Shown here: positions 14,636 through 58,973 of the stretch, piece after piece
Layout: each line of letters starts with the position of its first letter
Numbering within the stretch: the stretch's first letter is position 1
Assembly (NCBI GenBank): GCA_964016885.1
Contig: OZ024741.1
Coordinates: forward strand, 406,968,001-407,032,000
Length of the DNA: 64,000 nt
Direction: 5' to 3'
Source: Eledone cirrhosa
Lineage: Eukaryota
Notes under the pieces: generated by a model
Told to the model about the DNA's origin: nothing
The model's input: the letters and a program-made list of their open reading frames with translations, nothing else
Database searches by the model: none
Translations under genes and position numbers: made by a program

Positions 14636-14830
14636 GGTAAAGGTTCAGGAGCCCGACGGCAGAGCTCAATCCGTTTCGACAGCTTTTTCTGGATTGAAAT
14701 AGCCGTCGAAACGGATTGAGCTCTGCCGTCGGGGTCCCGAACCTTTTCCTATTACCCACTCTACTACCCAAAGTATCGAGTACTCTGGTGCGTTATGGTC
14801 CACCTGGTTCCTTACCACACTTCCTTCATT
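14636..14830. mobile_element. Short asymmetric hairpin family H, copy 1
   Basis: CCCGACGGCAGAGCTC..GTTTCGAC / GTCGAAAC..GAGCTCTGCCGTCGGG plus unpaired tail; lies in (TA)n. Confidence 0.85.
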
Positions 14831-15067: not shown

Positions 15068-15103
<36 letters not shown>

Positions 15104-15262
15104 GTGAGTTATCCACTACCAGTGATAATTTCGAACGGGAGAATTATCACGTGACTAGCGCCCGACAGAGGGGCAGTGTTATGTGGACAATGGGAAGTGA
15201 TGAGGATGCTAAATATAGCAGCCAGATTCGGCCAAATCTTTACTCGACCGTAAGGGGTAATT

Positions 15263-15300
<38 letters not shown>

Positions 15301-20866: not shown

Positions 20867-20907
<41 letters not shown>

Positions 20908-20908
<1 letters not shown>

Positions 20909-21097
20909 GGAAAAAGTATGACCCCGACGGCAGAGCTCAACCCGTTTCGACGGCTATTTGAGTCCAGAAATAGCCGTCGAAACGGCTTGAGCTCTGCCGT
21001 CGGGGTTATACTTTTTCCTATTTCCCACTCTACTACCCTAAGCATTGAGTACTCTGGTGCGTTATGGTCCATCTGGTTCCTTACCACAATTCATTTG

Positions 21098-21624: not shown

Positions 21625-21691
<67 letters not shown>

Positions 21692-21694
<3 letters not shown>

Positions 21695-21876
21695 AAAATG
21701 TATGACCCTCGACGGCAGAGCTCAAGAGGTTTCAACGGCTATGTCCAGAAATAGCCGTCAAAACGGCTTGAGCTCTGCCGTCGGGGTCATACATTTTCCT
21801 ATTAACCACTCTACTACCATAAGTATTGAATACTTTGGTGCGTTATGGTCCATCTAGTTCCTTAATACAACTACTT

Positions 21877-21880
<4 letters not shown>
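21692..21880. mobile_element. Hairpin family H, copy 3
   Basis: Same hairpin and tail; lies in (TA)n. Confidence 0.85.
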
Positions 21881-21947: not shown

Positions 21948-22265
21948 AGAGGTGAGTTTTATTGTAGCGCAATAAAGCAATGCAAATATTGGATAAGTAG
22001 CACTCTACAGTTTGTAGGACTGGAGTATAAATAATATAAGATCAAAAGATGGTTAAAAGAGTTCCAAGTATTTTATTATGCGCATTTCAAAAAACAAATA
22101 TGTTGATTTAAAACCTCACTATTCACAAGTGTTTTTTTAAACTTCATATGTATCCCTATTTTATCTGATGAAAACGCAGCTATCATCCCATGATGATATT
22201 TGTTTTTGAAATGCGCATAATAAAATACTTGGAACTCTTTTAACCATCTTTTGATCTTATATTAT
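21946..22265. mobile_element. Asymmetric fold-back element with HHR
   Basis: ~70-bp inverted arms 22031..22102 and 22196..22265, left extension, (TA)n flanks. Confidence 0.8.
22157..22227 (+). ncRNA. Type I hammerhead ribozyme
   Basis: TATTTTAT-CTGATGA-[stem II with TATCATC/GATGATA]-GAAA-TGCGCA-TA-ATAAAATA; 8-bp stem I, palindromic stem III. Confidence 0.8.
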
Positions 22266-22283
22266 ATATAAATATATATATAT

Positions 22284-22528: not shown

Positions 22529-22595
<67 letters not shown>

Positions 22596-22598
<3 letters not shown>

Positions 22599-23335
22599 TA
22601 TAAATTATGTCCTTAGAAACATTTGATAAGATATAAACTCAATTTCCTCTCCCAATTAGCATAATCAACCACACAAATAACCAATTAAACCAGGCTATAA
22701 GATTAAAAGGCAGCCGTGAAGAAATAATAGATAAATAAACGATAGCCATTTATTCGCGATCAACAACCGTAGAATATTTACCCATCATTTCAATAGCACG
22801 TGGAAATTGATTAAATATATCGTCAACCATACACAATTAGGTATAAAATTAAAGTTAGAAGAAAAAATGTATATAAACATACCAGGATTACATTTCTACC
22901 CTTTAGGGTTTCATTCGTTTTCGGAAATATCCTATCAAGGATAAATTCTCGAGCTTCGAACTCATCAGGAAACAAACTTACTTGGACAGAGATTTTTCTG
23001 AAATGATCCCCGCCAGAAACGAATTCAAAATGGCTAAGAACTGTGACGTGGCAGTGGTCAAGTCAGAAAGAATGTAATTGGTGCCTACGGCTAGTAGGCT
23101 GGTTGCTAGAAAGCGCAGCCTAATATTGCTCAAATTGCATCTCAACCTTATGGGAGATTATCAAATATAAAGATTTACATATACACAAACTAGACAGAGT
23201 TATAGATATGTTTTTGGCAACCATTCACGATGTGGCTCAATGATGAATTAATAAATTAAATAATCAGAGCAATATACTATAAATTATGTCCTTAGAATCA
23301 TTTGATAAGATATATACTCAATTTCCTCTCCCAAT
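22596..23335 (-). mobile_element. Retrozyme-like element: 679-nt monomer with ~60-bp terminal direct repeat
   Basis: 22598..22656 repeated at 23277..23335; (TA)n flanks; internal HHR. Confidence 0.8.
22892..22973 (-). ncRNA. Type I hammerhead ribozyme, canonical core
   Basis: Minus strand GTTTC-CTGATGA-GTTCG...(TATCCT/AGGATA)...CGAAT-GAAA-CCCtaaaGGG-TA-GAAAT. Confidence 0.88.
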
Positions 23336-24316
23336 ATATATATATAATAAATTTGAAGACTAAACACATAGGTACAGGAGACCGTATGTTATTTATTTCC
23401 AACCATCACTGTAGTATCAGCTGTTGGTCAGACACACCTCTAGTATTCTCTGCTGTATTAATCAAGTTTTATCTATATTTTAATATGTAACCATGCGTTA
23501 TTATCCCTGATGGTTTTGGAGGGAAGGTTGAACCATTTCTGGCGAATTGTTATATTCAGCTAATGAATTAGCACTACTCGAAGAGGGAGTTTAGAGCACT
23601 GGTTGGTGCAATAGAGAAGGAAACAGAATAGGCAACATCATAGATATGCTAGACAGTAAGTGAGAGTGCTGGGAAAAAATAATTCTACAGCGAATGTTAA
23701 GAAAAACATAGTTGCTTAAAAGCACGCCTTGACTGATTTAGTAACTGTCCTCGGGAAATATATTTCATTCTGAGAAAATTGTATTGACGAGACAAAGTAA
23801 TTTGAATTTCAAGGAATATAATTTCTTTGAATTACTAATTAATTTGAATTTCAAGGAATTTAATTGTTTTGAATTACTAAGTTTTTCTTTCAAAAAATAA
23901 CTAAATAAACACATAGTAGTAGTTATAGTTAGTAGAATGTATTCTTACTAGGAAAATAGTCAGAAATTACTTGGAAGCTTCGCCTACGTTATTGACTAAA
24001 TGTCTTAACATAGAAACGTTACCCTAATTTAGAGAGTAAATGCAGAGATACAGATTTGTAGTAAAATCATGTGGCCATAACCAGACAACGTTGAAATTAT
24101 CTGCCAATTAATCGTTTCAACGAGGTTAAGGACTACGTGACAACATTTATGTGAAGTTAAGAGAAGCCATGTTTATACGTTGATGTATATTACATTATTT
24201 CTAATTATTGATAGGACATCGGAAATAGGTGGGAATGGAGGAAAGAGATCTAAGTTGACAACGTAGAAATTTCATGTTACAGGAATGCAATGAAATTTGC
24301 AGAATGTAATGAAATT

Positions 24317-24350
<34 letters not shown>

Positions 24351-24485
24351 AAAGTAAAGTTTTTTTTTACAAAATGAAAAATAACCGAGGTGTCCTACAC
24401 GAGTGAAAGTATAAAGAAAAAAAGATGAAATCGAAAATGCAACTGGAGTCTTATTTTTTTTTAAATATATATATTTATTTGGTTC

Positions 24486-24521
24486 CTTTACCGGTTTCGC
24501 AGTTCTTCTGCTTTTCAAAAG
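24486..24521 (-). ncRNA. Degenerate hammerhead ribozyme
   Basis: CTT-TTGAAAA-GCAG aagaa CTGC-GAAA-CCGG-TA-AAG; all three stems present, two core changes. Confidence 0.5.
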
Positions 24522-24725
24522 TAGAGTTGAGATGGAGGGTCTGTGGTTTTTCTCACATCATCGATATACTATACTTCCCACCTAGATTGATGTTGTGATT
24601 ATTTCAAATAATTTATTGCTAACATTGTTGATATTGTTGTTATTGTTCTAACTGAATGCCATTACTACTACATATAGTAGCCTGTATATTCTTTTCATGC
24701 CTGTATATTCTCTTCATTCTCGCAA

Positions 24726-37298: not shown

Positions 37299-39668
37299 TG
37301 GTGCTGGTGTTACTGGTTGTGCTGCTGTCGTTGTTGGTGGCGGTGGTTGTGCTGGTGATGGTGTTTGGGGTGATAATGGTGTTGGTGGTGTTGGTGGTGA
37401 TGGTGTTGCTGGTGATGGTGTTGATGGTGTTGTTGGTGGTGGTTATGGTTGTGGTGATCATGGTGGTCGTGGTGATGGTTTTGGTGGTGGTGGTGATGAT
37501 GGTGTTGGTGTTGGTGGTATTGCTGAAGGTGGTGTTGGTGGGGATGATGATGTTGGTAGTGTTGGTGGTGTTGGTGGTGTTCGTGTTGGTGATGTTGGTG
37601 GTGATGATGGTGATCGTCTTGGTGGTGATGGTGTAGGTGGTGTTCGTGGTGATGGTGGTGATGTTGCTGGTGATGGTGGTGTTGTTGGTGTTGATGGTGT
37701 TGGTGGTGATGGTGGTGGTGGTGGTGGTAATGGTGTAGATGGTGTAGGTGGTGATGGTGTAGGTGGTGTTGGTGGTGATGGTGTAGATGGTGTAGGTGGT
37801 GATGGTGTTAGTGGTGATGGTGTGGTGATGGTGGTGATGGTGTAGATGGTGTAGGTGGTGATGGTGTAGATGGTGTAGGTGGTGATGGTGGTGATGGTGT
37901 AGGTGGTGATGGTGTTAGTGGTGATGGTGTGGTGATGGTGGTGATGATGTAGATGGTGTAGGTGGTGATGGTGTAGATGGTGTAGGTGGTGATGGTGGTG
38001 ATGGTGTAGGTGGTGATGGTGTAGGTGGTGTAGGTGGTGATGGTGTAGGTGGTGTAGGTGGTGATGGTGTAGGTGGTGTTGGTGGTGATGGTGATGGTGG
38101 TGATGTTGGTGGTGTTGGTGGTGGTGGTGGTGGTGGTGTGGTGGTAGTGGTGGTGGTGATGGTGTAGATGGTGTTGGTGGTGATGGTGGTGTAGGTGGTG
38201 TTGGTGGTGATGGTGGTGTTGGTGGTGTTGGTGGTGATGGTGTTGGTGGTGTTGGTGTAGGTGGTGTAGGTGGTGATGGTGTAGGTGGTATTGGTAGTGA
38301 TGGTGTAGGTGGTGTTGGTGGTGATGGTGTTGGTGTTGTTGGTGGTGTTGGTGGTGGTGTTGGTGGTGGTGGTGATGGTGGTGATGGTGTAGATGGTGTG
38401 GGTGGTGATGGTGTTGGTGGTGTTGGTGGTGGTGGTGTAGATGGTGTTGGTGGTGATGGTGTAGGTGGTGTTGGTGGTGATGGTGTTGATGGTGTAGGTG
38501 GTGTAGGTGGTATTGGTAGTGATGGTGTGGGTGGTATTGGTAGTGATGGTGTAGGTGGTGTTGGTGGTGATGGTGGTGTTGTTGCTGGTGATGGTGTTGG
38601 GTGTGATGGTGGTGGTGGTGGTTTTGGTGGTGGTGGTGATGGTGGTGATGGTGGTGATGGTGTTGGTGGTGATGGTGTAGCTGGTGTTGGAAGTGATGGT
38701 GTAGGTGGTGTTGGTGGTGCTGGTGGTGGTGGTGTTGGTGTGGTGGTGGTGGTGATGGTGTAGATGGTGTAGGTGGTGTTGGTGGTGATGGTGGTGTTGT
38801 TGGTGGTGATGGTGTTGGGTGTGATGGTGGTGGTGGTGGTGATGGTGGTGGTGGTGGTGATGGTGGTGGTGGTGGTGATGGTGGTGGTGGTGGTGAATGG
38901 TGTTGGTGATGATGGTGTAAGTGGTGTTGGTGGTGATGGTGGTGATGGTGTTGGTGGTGTTGGTGGTGTTGGTGGTGATGGTGGTGATGGTGTTGGTGGT
39001 GTTGGTGGTGATGGTGTAAGTGGTGTTGGTGGTGACGGTGTAGGTGGGGTTGGTGGTGACGGTGGTGATGGTGTTGGTGGTGTTGGTGGTGTTGGTGGTG
39101 ATGGTGTAGGTGGTGTTGGTGGTGTTGGTGGTGATGATGGATGTCGTGTTGGTGATGTTGGTGGTGGTGGTGATGGTGTTGGCGGTGTTGTAGGTGATGG
39201 TGGTGATGGTGGTGATGGTGTTGTTGGTGTTGGTGTAGGTGGTATTGGTGGTGTTGGTGGTATTGGTGGTGATGGTGTAGGTGGTGTTGGTGGTGTAGGT
39301 GGTATTGGTGGTGATGGTGTAGGTGGTGTAGGTGGTGATGGTGGTGTTGGTGGTGTTTGTGTTGGTGTTGGTGGTGTTGGTGTTGGTGGTGTTGGTGGTG
39401 TTGGTGTAGGTGGTGTTGGTGGTGTAGGTTGTATTGGTGGTGATGGTGTAAGTGGTGTAGGTGGTGATGGTGGTGTTGATGGTGTTGGTATTGGTGGTGA
39501 TGGTGTAGGTGGTATTGGTGGTGATGGTGTAGGTGGTGTAGGTGGTGTAGGTGGTGTAGGTGGTGTTGGTGTAGGTGGTGTAGGTGGTGTTGGTGGTGAT
39601 GGTGGTATTGGTGGTGTTGGTGGTGTTGGTGTTCGTGTTGATGGTGTAGGTGGTGTTGCTGCTGCTGC
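37299..39668. repeat. 2.4-kb degenerate (GGT/GAT/GTT)n trinucleotide array
   Basis: Direct reading; explains the long T-rich and G-rich pseudo-ORFs. Confidence 0.95.
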
Positions 39669-47606: not shown

Positions 47607-47646
47607 TATACATATTAATAAAATAGATGTTCTTTTGATTAATTAC

Positions 47647-47699
47647 ATTTTATTATATATATTTCGGATTTACAACAGTACGTCCTCATCAGACAAAAT
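47647..47699 (-). ncRNA. Type I hammerhead ribozyme in a ~250-bp insert between (TA)n runs
   Basis: ATTTTGT-CTGATGA-GGA...TCC-GAAA-TATATA-TA-ATAAAAT. Confidence 0.85.
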
Positions 47700-47843
47700 A
47701 TAATGATACATGACACCCTGAGATGTTAAGTGGTTAACATTTAATCAAGGTAGTGATTAACCTAAGAGAAAGTTTAACATTTATACCTTAATAATGAGAA
47801 AATGCGAAAACGTAATAAATTCAATAGAGAATGTATGAGTAAG

Positions 47844-56827: not shown

Positions 56828-58193
56828 TTCCTTGAGAGTAACAATATGCTGAACTCCAACCAGCATGGATTCCGTCATGGAAGGGATTGCCTGACGCAGC
56901 TACTGCATCACTTTGATGACATTTTGAGAGCCTTGGGAGAGGGTTCTAACACTGATGTTATCTACCTTGATTTCAGCAAGGCCTTTGACAGGGTTGATCA
57001 CAATATTCTACTGAGAAAGCTGTCCAATATTGGTGTCACTGGAAAGCTGCTGCAGTGGATCAAGTTCTTCCTGTCAAACAGAACCCAACATGTTGTAGTC
57101 GAAGGAGTCAAATCCAGCCCAGCCAAAGTCAGTAGTGGGGTCCCACAAGGCATTGTGTTGGGCCCACTTCTCTTCATCATCTATATTAATGACATCACTG
57201 ACATCATCAAACACAGCAACATTATAATTTTCACTGATGATTGCAAGCTCCAGAAGGTCATCAATGACGTGGATGACCGGATAAGCCTTCAGTCAGACCT
57301 ATTGGCTGTTACCCAATGGGCGGAAAAGAACAACATGTTACTGAACGAAGACAAATTCGAACTGATCCATTTTGGAAAAGAGGATGCTCTGAAACTCCCG
57401 TACTCCCTTCCTTCCGGTGAAACTCTCGTGGCATCTAACAACATCAGAGACTTGGGAGTAACTGTGGACAGCAACATAAGCTGGGCCACGCATATAAGCA
57501 GCACAATTGACATGGCCCGCAGAATGTGTTCCTGGATCGTCAGAACCTTCCAGTCGAGAGTTTCCCACACCATTATCCTTCTCTTCTCTACTTTTGCCCG
57601 ACCACACCTTGAATACTGTTGTCCACTGTGGTCTCCCCACATGAAACAAAGTATCATGAATCTTGAAGTTCCCCAAAGGGCAATCACGAAAAAGATAGAT
57701 GGCATGTCAGACCTTGACTACTGGGGTCGACTAGAAAAGCTGAAACTTTACTCACTCCAACGTCGCCGTGAGCGTTATATTATCTGCATGATGTGGAAAA
57801 TGTTTCATCAGCACTGCCCAAATGATGTTGGCATCGCCTTCAAAATACACCCAAGGCTTGGGCCCCGTGCTATCCGTCCCAAACAAAAATCTAAATCGCA
57901 ACTCATAACAACAATACGGCACAATTATTTCACCTCAATTTGCCCTGTTCTCTTCAACAGGACACGTTAAAACAGAAACTGACCACACAAAATTCAAGAA
58001 GTCTTTGGACAAATTCCTCCAAGTAATCACGGACAAACCACCCATACCCGGATATGTCTCCGCAAACAGTAATTCCCTTCTCGAACGGGCCATGGTGCCC
58101 AAATCCTGAATTGAAAGACTTCGCCAGATGGTGCTATTAAGTTAGACATATCCTTAGCCAATACTGGACAAAACATTTCAAAGTTATTCAAAG

Positions 58194-58196: not shown

Positions 58197-58226
<30 letters not shown>

Positions 58227-58296
58227 CGGAACAAGCAAACATTAAACAATATTTTAAATAAATTAAAATACGATTTAAATATTTACCTCTTCTAGT

Positions 58297-58376
58297 GCTA
58301 TGACCGGCGGTTTCGCTTATCAAAAGATTGGAAATTCAGAGACTTTCCAATGGAAAGATATAGCTCTTCAGATAGC
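58297..58376 (-). ncRNA. Type I hammerhead ribozyme, canonical core
   Basis: GCTAT-CTGAAGA-GCT..TATC..TTGGAAA/TTTCCAA..GATA.AGC-GAAA-CCGcCGG-TC-ATAGC. Confidence 0.88.
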
Positions 58377-58764
58377 TTTTCCAAATCTACTAGACATAAG
58401 TCCGTATAGATGTAGATATATCACCCTCTGCCCAGTGAATGAATCAAGCCGTTAAAATGATCCACACACTTATTGGACCGTTAGAAAAAGCGGGAAATAT
58501 AGAGTTGCTGATATTTCATGCTGCTAGAAATAGCAGCATGATACAGCAGATTTTTTTTTCTCTACATTAAGGAGAATTAGATAAATGATATAGATAACCC
58601 AGTAGGTACTAGGTACCCACGGAAATATATATGGTGTCTATAATAGTGGTTCTTCTATGGTACGAATTTGAGATACCAGAACTGTAAATATGAGCAGAAC
58701 AAGCAAACATTAAACAATCTTTTAAATAAATTAAAATACGATTTAAATATTTACCTCTTCTAGT

Positions 58765-58844
58765 GCTATGACCGGCGGTTTCGCTTATCAAAAGATTGGA
58801 AATTCAGAGACTTTCCAATGGAAAGATATAGCTCTTCACATAGC
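58765..58844 (-). ncRNA. Hammerhead ribozyme copy with C3-to-G change (GTGAAGA)
   Basis: Otherwise identical to 58297..58376. Confidence 0.7.
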
Positions 58845-58973
58845 TTTTCCAAATCTACTAGACATAAGTCCGTATAGATGTAGATATATCACCCTCTGCC
58901 CAGTGAATGAATCAAGCCGTTAAAATGACCCACAGGCTTATTGGACCGTTAGATATATATATATATTTATATA

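Follow-up and report, generated by a model that had tools for sequence, protein, structure and literature searches.

A dispersed family of 679-nt hammerhead-bearing units in Eledone cirrhosa whose copy ends suggest Penelope-type copying of ribozyme-cut, probably circular RNA

Introduction

How does a 679-nt non-coding unit come to lie in a genome with a hammerhead motif in its middle, a short direct repeat at its two ends and TA runs outside? Such a unit is found in the Eledone cirrhosa stretch of 64,000 nt analysed here (the window), where a first-pass annotation had read it as one monomer plus a short overlap left by reverse transcription of a circular or multimeric RNA. Animal retrozymes occur as linear and circular monomer RNAs (PMC7229834), and their mobilisation by Penelope-like elements via circular RNA, with cDNAs longer than one unit, was proposed earlier (PMC7761336). 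Penelope insertions combine a partial tandem with an inverted copy and may add a tail (PMC8557442), their usual hammerheads are minimal and of the dimer type (PMC4209133), and self-priming has been offered as another origin of inverted repeats (PMC3846280). A 2026 preprint (10.64898/2026.07.22.740005) argues that non-LTR retrozymes and non-autonomous Penelope elements are the same thing, with the mechanism still to be elucidated. In the element PAc, priming is internal, at two sites and on both strands of AT-rich DNA, the hammerhead is dispensable in vitro, and RNA ends at its cut were not seen (PMC11167929).

Three questions are open in this literature: whether circular retrozyme RNA is a real template for reverse transcription, which is proposed only (PMC7229834, PMC7761336); whether Penelope-associated hammerheads cut in vivo, PAc being without such RNA ends (PMC11167929); and how pseudo-LTRs (pLTRs) and inverted partners arise. 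The family of the window copy offers countable genomic footprints bearing on all three, and it is a small testable substrate whose genome also houses an autonomous Penelope that is young and has kept its ORF intact.

Materials and Methods

Phases are counted along the unit with phase 1 at 22593, and the predicted ribozyme cut falls between phases 304 and 305. The sample of the window's own family (family A) was the first 100 of 302 genomic matches to a 32-mer (contigs C1-C2); six second matches were dropped, giving 84 insertions, and four were added back for later tests, giving 88. For a young relative (family B), the first 100 of 188 matches gave 63 loci after removal of one segmental duplicate. 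The end statistics rest on about 150 genomic copies of both families. Copies longer than about 717 nt had two chances of being sampled, and a second-pass test in which they were down-weighted gave p 1e-4. Two length-selected sets (30 and 20 loci) were used only for junctions and repeat comparison. All units were folded as linear molecules.

Results

Layout of the window copy

The terminal direct repeats of the window copy are 64 nt each, 62/64 (97%) identical and 679 apart (Table 1), which bears out the first-pass claim of a ~60-bp repeat with a period of 679. The TA runs reported outside it were also found, long on the left and short on the right, as was the absence of an ORF: the longest stop-to-stop frame across the element is 79 aa, and the frame with reverse transcriptase (RT) and GIY-YIG endonuclease that defines an autonomous Penelope-like element (PLE) is lacking. 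Start sites A and B are 107 nt apart, measured across the unit junction. The window copy comprises 1.09 units with a single hammerhead; 30 of its 679 positions depart from the commonest letter, 3 of them within the ribozyme region. It is probably a product rather than a source of the family, since it carries one ribozyme only and since nowhere but in the 64-nt overlap is site A joined to its downstream context.

Table 1. Features of the window copy, with positions numbered from the first letter of the window
Feature	Position	Strand	Basis or remark
Target microsatellite (TA)n, left flank	22530..22597 (approx.)	none	likely priming side of reverse transcription
Start site A (phase 1, ATATA), the family's fixed end, RNA-sense 3' end	22593..22598	+	
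Single 679-nt non-coding unit	22593..23271	- (RNA sense)	repeat spacing, family, ORF check, fold
Direct repeat, copy 1	22593..22656	+	62/64 identical to copy 2
Long rod hairpin, predicted, 3' of the ribozyme	22659..22832	-	in MFE and centroid folds
Type I hammerhead ribozyme, predicted cut 22897/22896 (phase 305/304)	22891..22974	-	conservation, 5'-end pile-up
Conserved block, short motifs resembling E2F, YY1 and CCAAT boxes	23008..23087	none	conserved alignment columns
Hairpin-like block, best conserved among subfamilies	23097..23120	-	mean column identity 0.89-0.91
Start site B (phase 573, ATATA), unused by the window copy	23165..23169	+	
Direct repeat, copy 2, second-pass overlap and variable 5' end of the insertion	23272..23335	+	
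Short TA remnant, right flank	23334..23345	none	seen in sequence

Folding of the whole unit is strong on the minus strand (z -4.9) and poor on the plus strand (z -1.3), and a 66%-identical cousin folds at z -4.5 with a similar rod hairpin. The conserved block, with its E2F-, YY1- and CCAAT-like motifs, is a putative internal promoter; it showed no significant similarity to Neptune pLTRs. The hairpin-like block may be an RT-binding signal 3' of the start sites.

The hammerhead ribozyme

As read from the sequence, the ribozyme of the window copy has the core CUGAUGA, followed by stem II (5 bp with an interrupted extension) and GAAA, a stem I of 5-6 bp, a stem III of A-CCC/UAAA/GGG-U and a GUA site at the predicted cut. 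CUGANGA, GAAA and NUH lie around three stems and the whole is open at stem I, as in the type I layout. The first-pass annotation had called this minus-strand hammerhead fully canonical; the type I motif is there, while its canonical status was overstated, since the pair 10.1-11.1 beside the core is a G-U wobble. This pair was G-C in 34, A-A in 20, U-U in 18, U-A in 17 and G-U in 4 of 99 hammerhead copies, and with pairing in only 60/99 it is often non-canonical. The reading of that annotation also needs correction in that the single hammerhead of the window copy cannot alone yield a monomer running from ribozyme to ribozyme.

Stem I is paired in 95-98/99 copies per position and stem III in 90-99/99; the 99 rows were chosen by core motifs, so that conservation of the core itself follows by construction. 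Among 24 diverse copies, stem I showed 95.8% pairing with three double-sided pair changes, and the hammerhead covariation score was 0.220 vs 0.153 in shuffled alignments (0/500), a control inflated by relatedness. The ribozyme has the same position within the unit in all cousin subfamilies. A search of Rfam at the gathering cut-off and at E<=10 gave no hammerhead match, and the minimum-free-energy structure of the isolated 106-nt motif was not the full hammerhead and folded no better than shuffles (z -0.97); its centroid shows stems II and III, with stem I absent. A pol III signal was considered for a B-box-like word in stem II and rejected, the word not being kept in cousins.

A dispersed family

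A 32-mer taken from the repeat matches the genome exactly at 302 places, a control at 0, and the unit belongs to a multicopy family, so that it is not a chance arrangement and the repeat is not the locus-specific duplication that would have told against a reverse-transcribed origin. Searching the 3.0-Gb genome with the unit gave 4,810 first-look candidates, 40 of which were scored; the 41 longest matches had 91-100% identity. Cousin subfamilies share 66-95% identity with the family, a 17-mer picked to avoid the window's subfamily has 1,014 exact matches, and family B has 2,189 candidates in the genome. Across subfamilies the period stays at about 660-690, as the first-pass annotation had expected of paralogues; the circular permutation that it also expected is not free, and we rejected that idea, because copies start at fixed ATATA sites.

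Loci with several units also exist, including masters with 2-10 or more hammerhead cores. A tandem array of about 25 kb (L236 and L237, G000:C1:92.99-93.016 Mb) consists of a cousin unit with a period near 660, with 9-10 consecutive hammerhead cores per 10 kb spaced 656-667 apart; its units are 92-98% identical, every sampled unit has the core, and the array is a candidate source locus for its cousin subfamily. Within the family itself, L122, L123 and L129 hold 2-3 hammerhead cores; neighbouring units differ by 0-1.6% (about 3% for the last partial unit of L129), and these multimers look like later DNA expansions.

Fixed starts and variable far ends

Site A was the start of 78/84 family A copies and site B of 3/84. 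Both are ATATA words adjoining TA runs, and site A is kept in cousin subfamilies. Flanks were TA-rich on the left in 70/84 unselected copies and on the right in 61/84, and such flanks hide any target-site duplication. The opposite (5') end is variable, copies ranging from 38 nt to more than 3 units, with 57/88 shorter than one unit and 31/88 of 1-1.5 units, and in other close copies the overlap measures 43-425 nt or more. One monomer plus some 60 bp, as first described, is therefore true of the window copy and is not the family form; it is one point on a truncation distribution. The fixed end corresponds to the 3' side of the RNA, and the template therefore has minus-strand sense, like the ribozyme.

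An inverted partner was present in 16/84 family A copies, and in 14/16 both outer ends lay at start sites, always one A and one B. In family B, 22/27 two-sided insertions pair A with B and 5 have one end elsewhere. Taken together, the resolved two-sided insertions of both families were A-B in 36/36 (14 + 22), and A-A or B-B never occurred. The Penelope-type anatomy, which the first-pass annotation had missed, is displayed in full: the family targets TA microsatellites, has a fixed 3' end with truncation at the 5' end, and shows a partial tandem (pLTR), an inverted partner and a tail between the two start sites. It agrees with what is known of PAc, namely initiation at two internal sites and extension of both strands (PMC11167929).

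Copy ends at the predicted cut

Variable ends of family A were concentrated at the predicted cut, with 18/84 within phase 286-307 (22 nt), where the hazard was 1.16 per 100 nt, against 0.08-0.19 over the rest of the first pass; the fullest 22-nt window among 10,000 uniform simulations held 13 ends. The pile is one-sided, with 17 ends on the 3' side of the bond vs 3 ends in 19 nt on the 5' side. Five ends lie exactly at phase 304 (L093, L105, L015, L341 and L342; two first pass, three second pass) and one at phase 305 (L122), the exact second-pass ends being 983 nt from the start. Family B repeats the pattern, with 8/40 ends in phase 278-299 and its cut at 295 (p 9e-5), 5/8 of them at a TATAT word 3 nt before the cut. 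TA microhomology shapes many copy ends, and we rejected it as the sole cause of the pile, because without such ends 12/48 still fall in phase 290-305 (p 2e-9). Some ends lie at phase 296-299, the foot of stem I, where stalling at that stem may explain them; the long rod, which is more stable than the hammerhead, shows no pile of ends at its foot.

Stopping after one full period

Past one period, the hazard in family A climbs from about 0.12 to 0.5-0.6 per 100 nt. At the same phases, stops numbered 17/26 in the second pass vs 15/87 in the first (p 6e-6) in family A and 6/10 vs 4/57 (p 3e-4) in family B, that is, stopping rises 4-5-fold once a full period has been copied. Over phase 1-110 of family B, first crossings primed at B (unselected segments) stopped in 2/19 cases and second crossings primed at A in 9/17 (p 0.01); the corresponding comparison in family A, 3/9 vs 16/27 stops, was not significant (p 0.26). 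Family B, unlike family A, has a second pile: 14/34 A-primed ends lie around site B at phase 531-580, six of them precisely on it. Synthesis may there have run into the second primer on a circle, or simple microhomology may be at work.

Divergence between repeats is 4.2% inside a locus and 7.1% from one locus to another, the former being the lower in 67/76 non-independent pairs; master loci that have been homogenised would also produce this closeness. Where copies pass over the cut, indels open at about background frequency (3 in 107), so that precise ligation, or a template that was never cut, is more plausible than an imprecise jump. A pure circle does not explain the exact ends at the second cut, 983 nt from the start, for which linear dimers or a template jump are required. 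The first-pass inference of reverse transcription survives in altered form: the end statistics favour a ribozyme-cut, probably circular RNA template, while the 60-bp overlap is not what characterises the family.

Search for the mobilising partner

A genome-wide GIY-YIG search gave 10,596 candidates, of which 150 were scored, most with a cysteine linker. This linker resembles the one described for Neptune (PMC8557442), and the resident Penelope is provisionally labelled Neptune-like. One locus, L171, is autonomous, with a 938-aa RT and GIY-YIG frame and pLTRs that are 99% identical, and a 30-mer of its pLTR has 12,451 exact genomic matches. Its copies are TA-flanked and have two start sites 70 nt apart; among 30 rows, at least 12 two-sided insertions used each of the two sites once. 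In 50 GIY-YIG loci, a subset of the at least 150 scored from the 10,596 candidates, blastn and nhmmer found no homology of the 679-nt unit to an autonomous partner, and only family copies matched. A motif scan against two pLTRs gave no significant similarity, 14-124/200 shuffles scoring as high. A cousin element beside the Penelope ORF in L181 was rejected as a partner link, being TA-flanked and taken as an independent insertion. The shared insertion anatomy suggests by analogy that the mobilising enzyme would be of the Penelope type.

Some further observations concern the L171 family. Four unselected partner segments have their ends at 148-159, close to the family's predicted cut (152), and ends are also numerous at 214-227, where transcription may begin. 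A pLTR fragment of this family lies in the window at 24339-24559, and its hammerhead appears to have a U3-A8 core variant.

Other elements in the window

A second family of like anatomy is represented at 58226-58953 (TA-flanked, period ~465, ~1.6 units), with a minus-strand type I hammerhead at 58376-58297, a mutated core in the second copy and a weak hit (E 0.075) to the profile of the conserved hairpin block. A TA-flanked fragment of a further distant cousin lies at 15103-15270 (nhmmer E 2e-9). A pLTR-like fragment at 21975-22270 is two-sided and flanked by TA; it has an inverted repeat of 68 bp and contains a minimal hammerhead with palindromic stem III at 22157-22227 (+); pieces similar to this fragment flank L025 and occur in L188, and a tie between the hammerhead at 22157 and the ORF in L188 was rejected as mere co-location. 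There are also a minimal hammerhead-like motif with a long stem I on the minus strand at 47642-47704, a TA-flanked element of ~190 bp that recurs (~14640-14830, 20900-21090, 21690-21880) and encloses an inverted repeat, degraded LINE-like reverse transcriptase sequence, judged by eye, at ~56830-58100, and a satellite with a 47-bp unit in 39 copies together with a long GGT-rich repeat at 1-1802 and 37299-39658.

Discussion

Proposed mechanism and alternatives

The reading that we favour, and consider probable with a good measure of reserve, is that of a non-autonomous, Penelope-mobilised retrozyme copied from ribozyme-cut linear and circular RNA monomers. Reading from the family, its insertion anatomy, its end statistics and its ribozyme conservation, which the genome itself displays, we propose a course of transcription from multi-ribozyme loci, cleavage, ligation, TA-primed internal initiation and strand displacement. 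Rare source loci with at least two hammerheads would be transcribed on the minus strand, and, as the end statistics suggest, the hammerheads would cut the transcript into 679-nt monomers, a share of which would be ligated precisely into circles. A borrowed RT/GIY-YIG enzyme of the Penelope type would then cut (TA)n, and the 3' end of the cut DNA would prime internally at the UAUAU of site A, while the other strand could prime at B. Synthesis on a linear monomer would reach the end of its template at the cut, 304 nt beyond A. A circle would let synthesis pass the cut cleanly, make one full turn, meet its own cDNA and usually halt within ~170 nt, leaving one unit plus a short overlap. The window copy would be such a circle-type product and, with its one hammerhead, likely a dead end.

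Linear templates might do without the circle, a Penelope enzyme copying partly cleaved multimeric transcripts of long master loci and the repeat being an ordinary pseudo-LTR formed via 5' truncation. This is the standard PLE model (PMC11167929, PMC8557442), such masters exist, and it would account for copies ending precisely at 304 or 983 as well as for the cleanness of the crossings; it is nevertheless unlikely in our judgement, as it leaves unexplained the 4-5 times more frequent second-pass stops on the same sequence, as a sharp pile at a transcription start is not seen among the copy ends, and as long arrays are few and copies of 1.0-1.3 units common. A circle could also be mimicked if the RT ran off the cut 5' end of a linear monomer and jumped to that monomer's own 3' end, which would account at one stroke for three features, namely the accumulation of ends at 304, the increased stopping beyond 679 and the ends falling exactly at 983. 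Template jumps usually leave scars, as with R2-type RTs, whereas the crossings here are without excess indels or added bases (3 in 107), and we hold this course to be quite improbable.

A more sceptical account has no cutting by the hammerhead in vivo and puts the ends near 304 down to RT stalling at the folded motif or to microhomology joining, and the repeats to DNA-level duplication. Several ends at 296-299, at the foot of stem I, would suit it, as would the multimers that are DNA expansions and the finding that 8/9 Xenopus retrozyme dimers were uncleaved in vitro (bioRxiv 10.64898/2026.07.22.740005). Against it stand five ends that coincide with the scissile bond and lack TA microhomology, the absence of a pile at the foot of the long rod, which is the more stable structure, the compensatory change in the hammerhead stems and the overlaps, which begin at site A without exception, and we give it very little credence. 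Returning to copying from cut linear and circular monomers, one may go further and see in the genome a countable fossil record of hammerhead cutting in vivo and of Penelope-type copying of circular RNA, with two-strand, two-site priming into TA repeats, and Penelope pseudo-LTRs in general may be the strand-displacement overlap of such a circle; this extension we put forward tentatively, and on the whole we doubt it more than we believe it.

Comparison with known systems

In the literature that we found, neither the window's family nor such end statistics are described; Repbase, Dfam and supplements lay outside that search, and supplements may list the family. LTR retrozymes of plants and TRIM-like elements share with the window element a unit of ~700 nt, terminal direct repeats and a hammerhead. 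Theirs, however, is a type III ribozyme within the repeats and their LTR ends are fixed, whereas the window element has a type I ribozyme in mid-unit and its family has repeats of variable length. We therefore rejected an LTR retrozyme identity, given repeats of 43 to > 425 nt and a type I ribozyme outside the repeats of the window copy.

Animal non-LTR retrozymes (PMC7229834; 10.64898/2026.07.22.740005) are likewise non-coding and of low GC, with one type I hammerhead per unit, and occur as monomers, dimers and multimers, as in the window's family. Their structural definition, a type I hammerhead per unit and at least two consecutive units at some loci, also describes the family. The invertebrate units studied measure 170-400 nt, shorter than the 679 nt here, which lies within the range of 51-972 for vertebrate ones. 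Unlike them, the window family consists mostly of dispersed 0.05-1.5-unit insertions in (TA)n and uses two fixed internal start sites asymmetrically.

With PLEs that carry pLTRs (Poseidon PAc, Neptune, Naiad), the family has in common the pseudo-LTR, 5' truncation, adjacent inverted copy, optional tail, microsatellite targeting and a hammerhead in the repeat, and nonautonomous Chlamys such as MRC1 are also a close Penelope-type comparison. It differs from such PLEs in its tail of 107-127 nt vs 30-40, and in family A in a stem III of 4 bp with a non-palindromic loop vs the minimal dimer-type PLE ribozyme; cousin subfamilies, unlike family A, have a palindromic stem III. It also differs from PLEs in having neither an ORF nor detectable homology to the resident autonomous pLTR. 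The feature in the window is thus of a known class, and a variant of it whose copy-end statistics bear on the mechanistic questions raised above.
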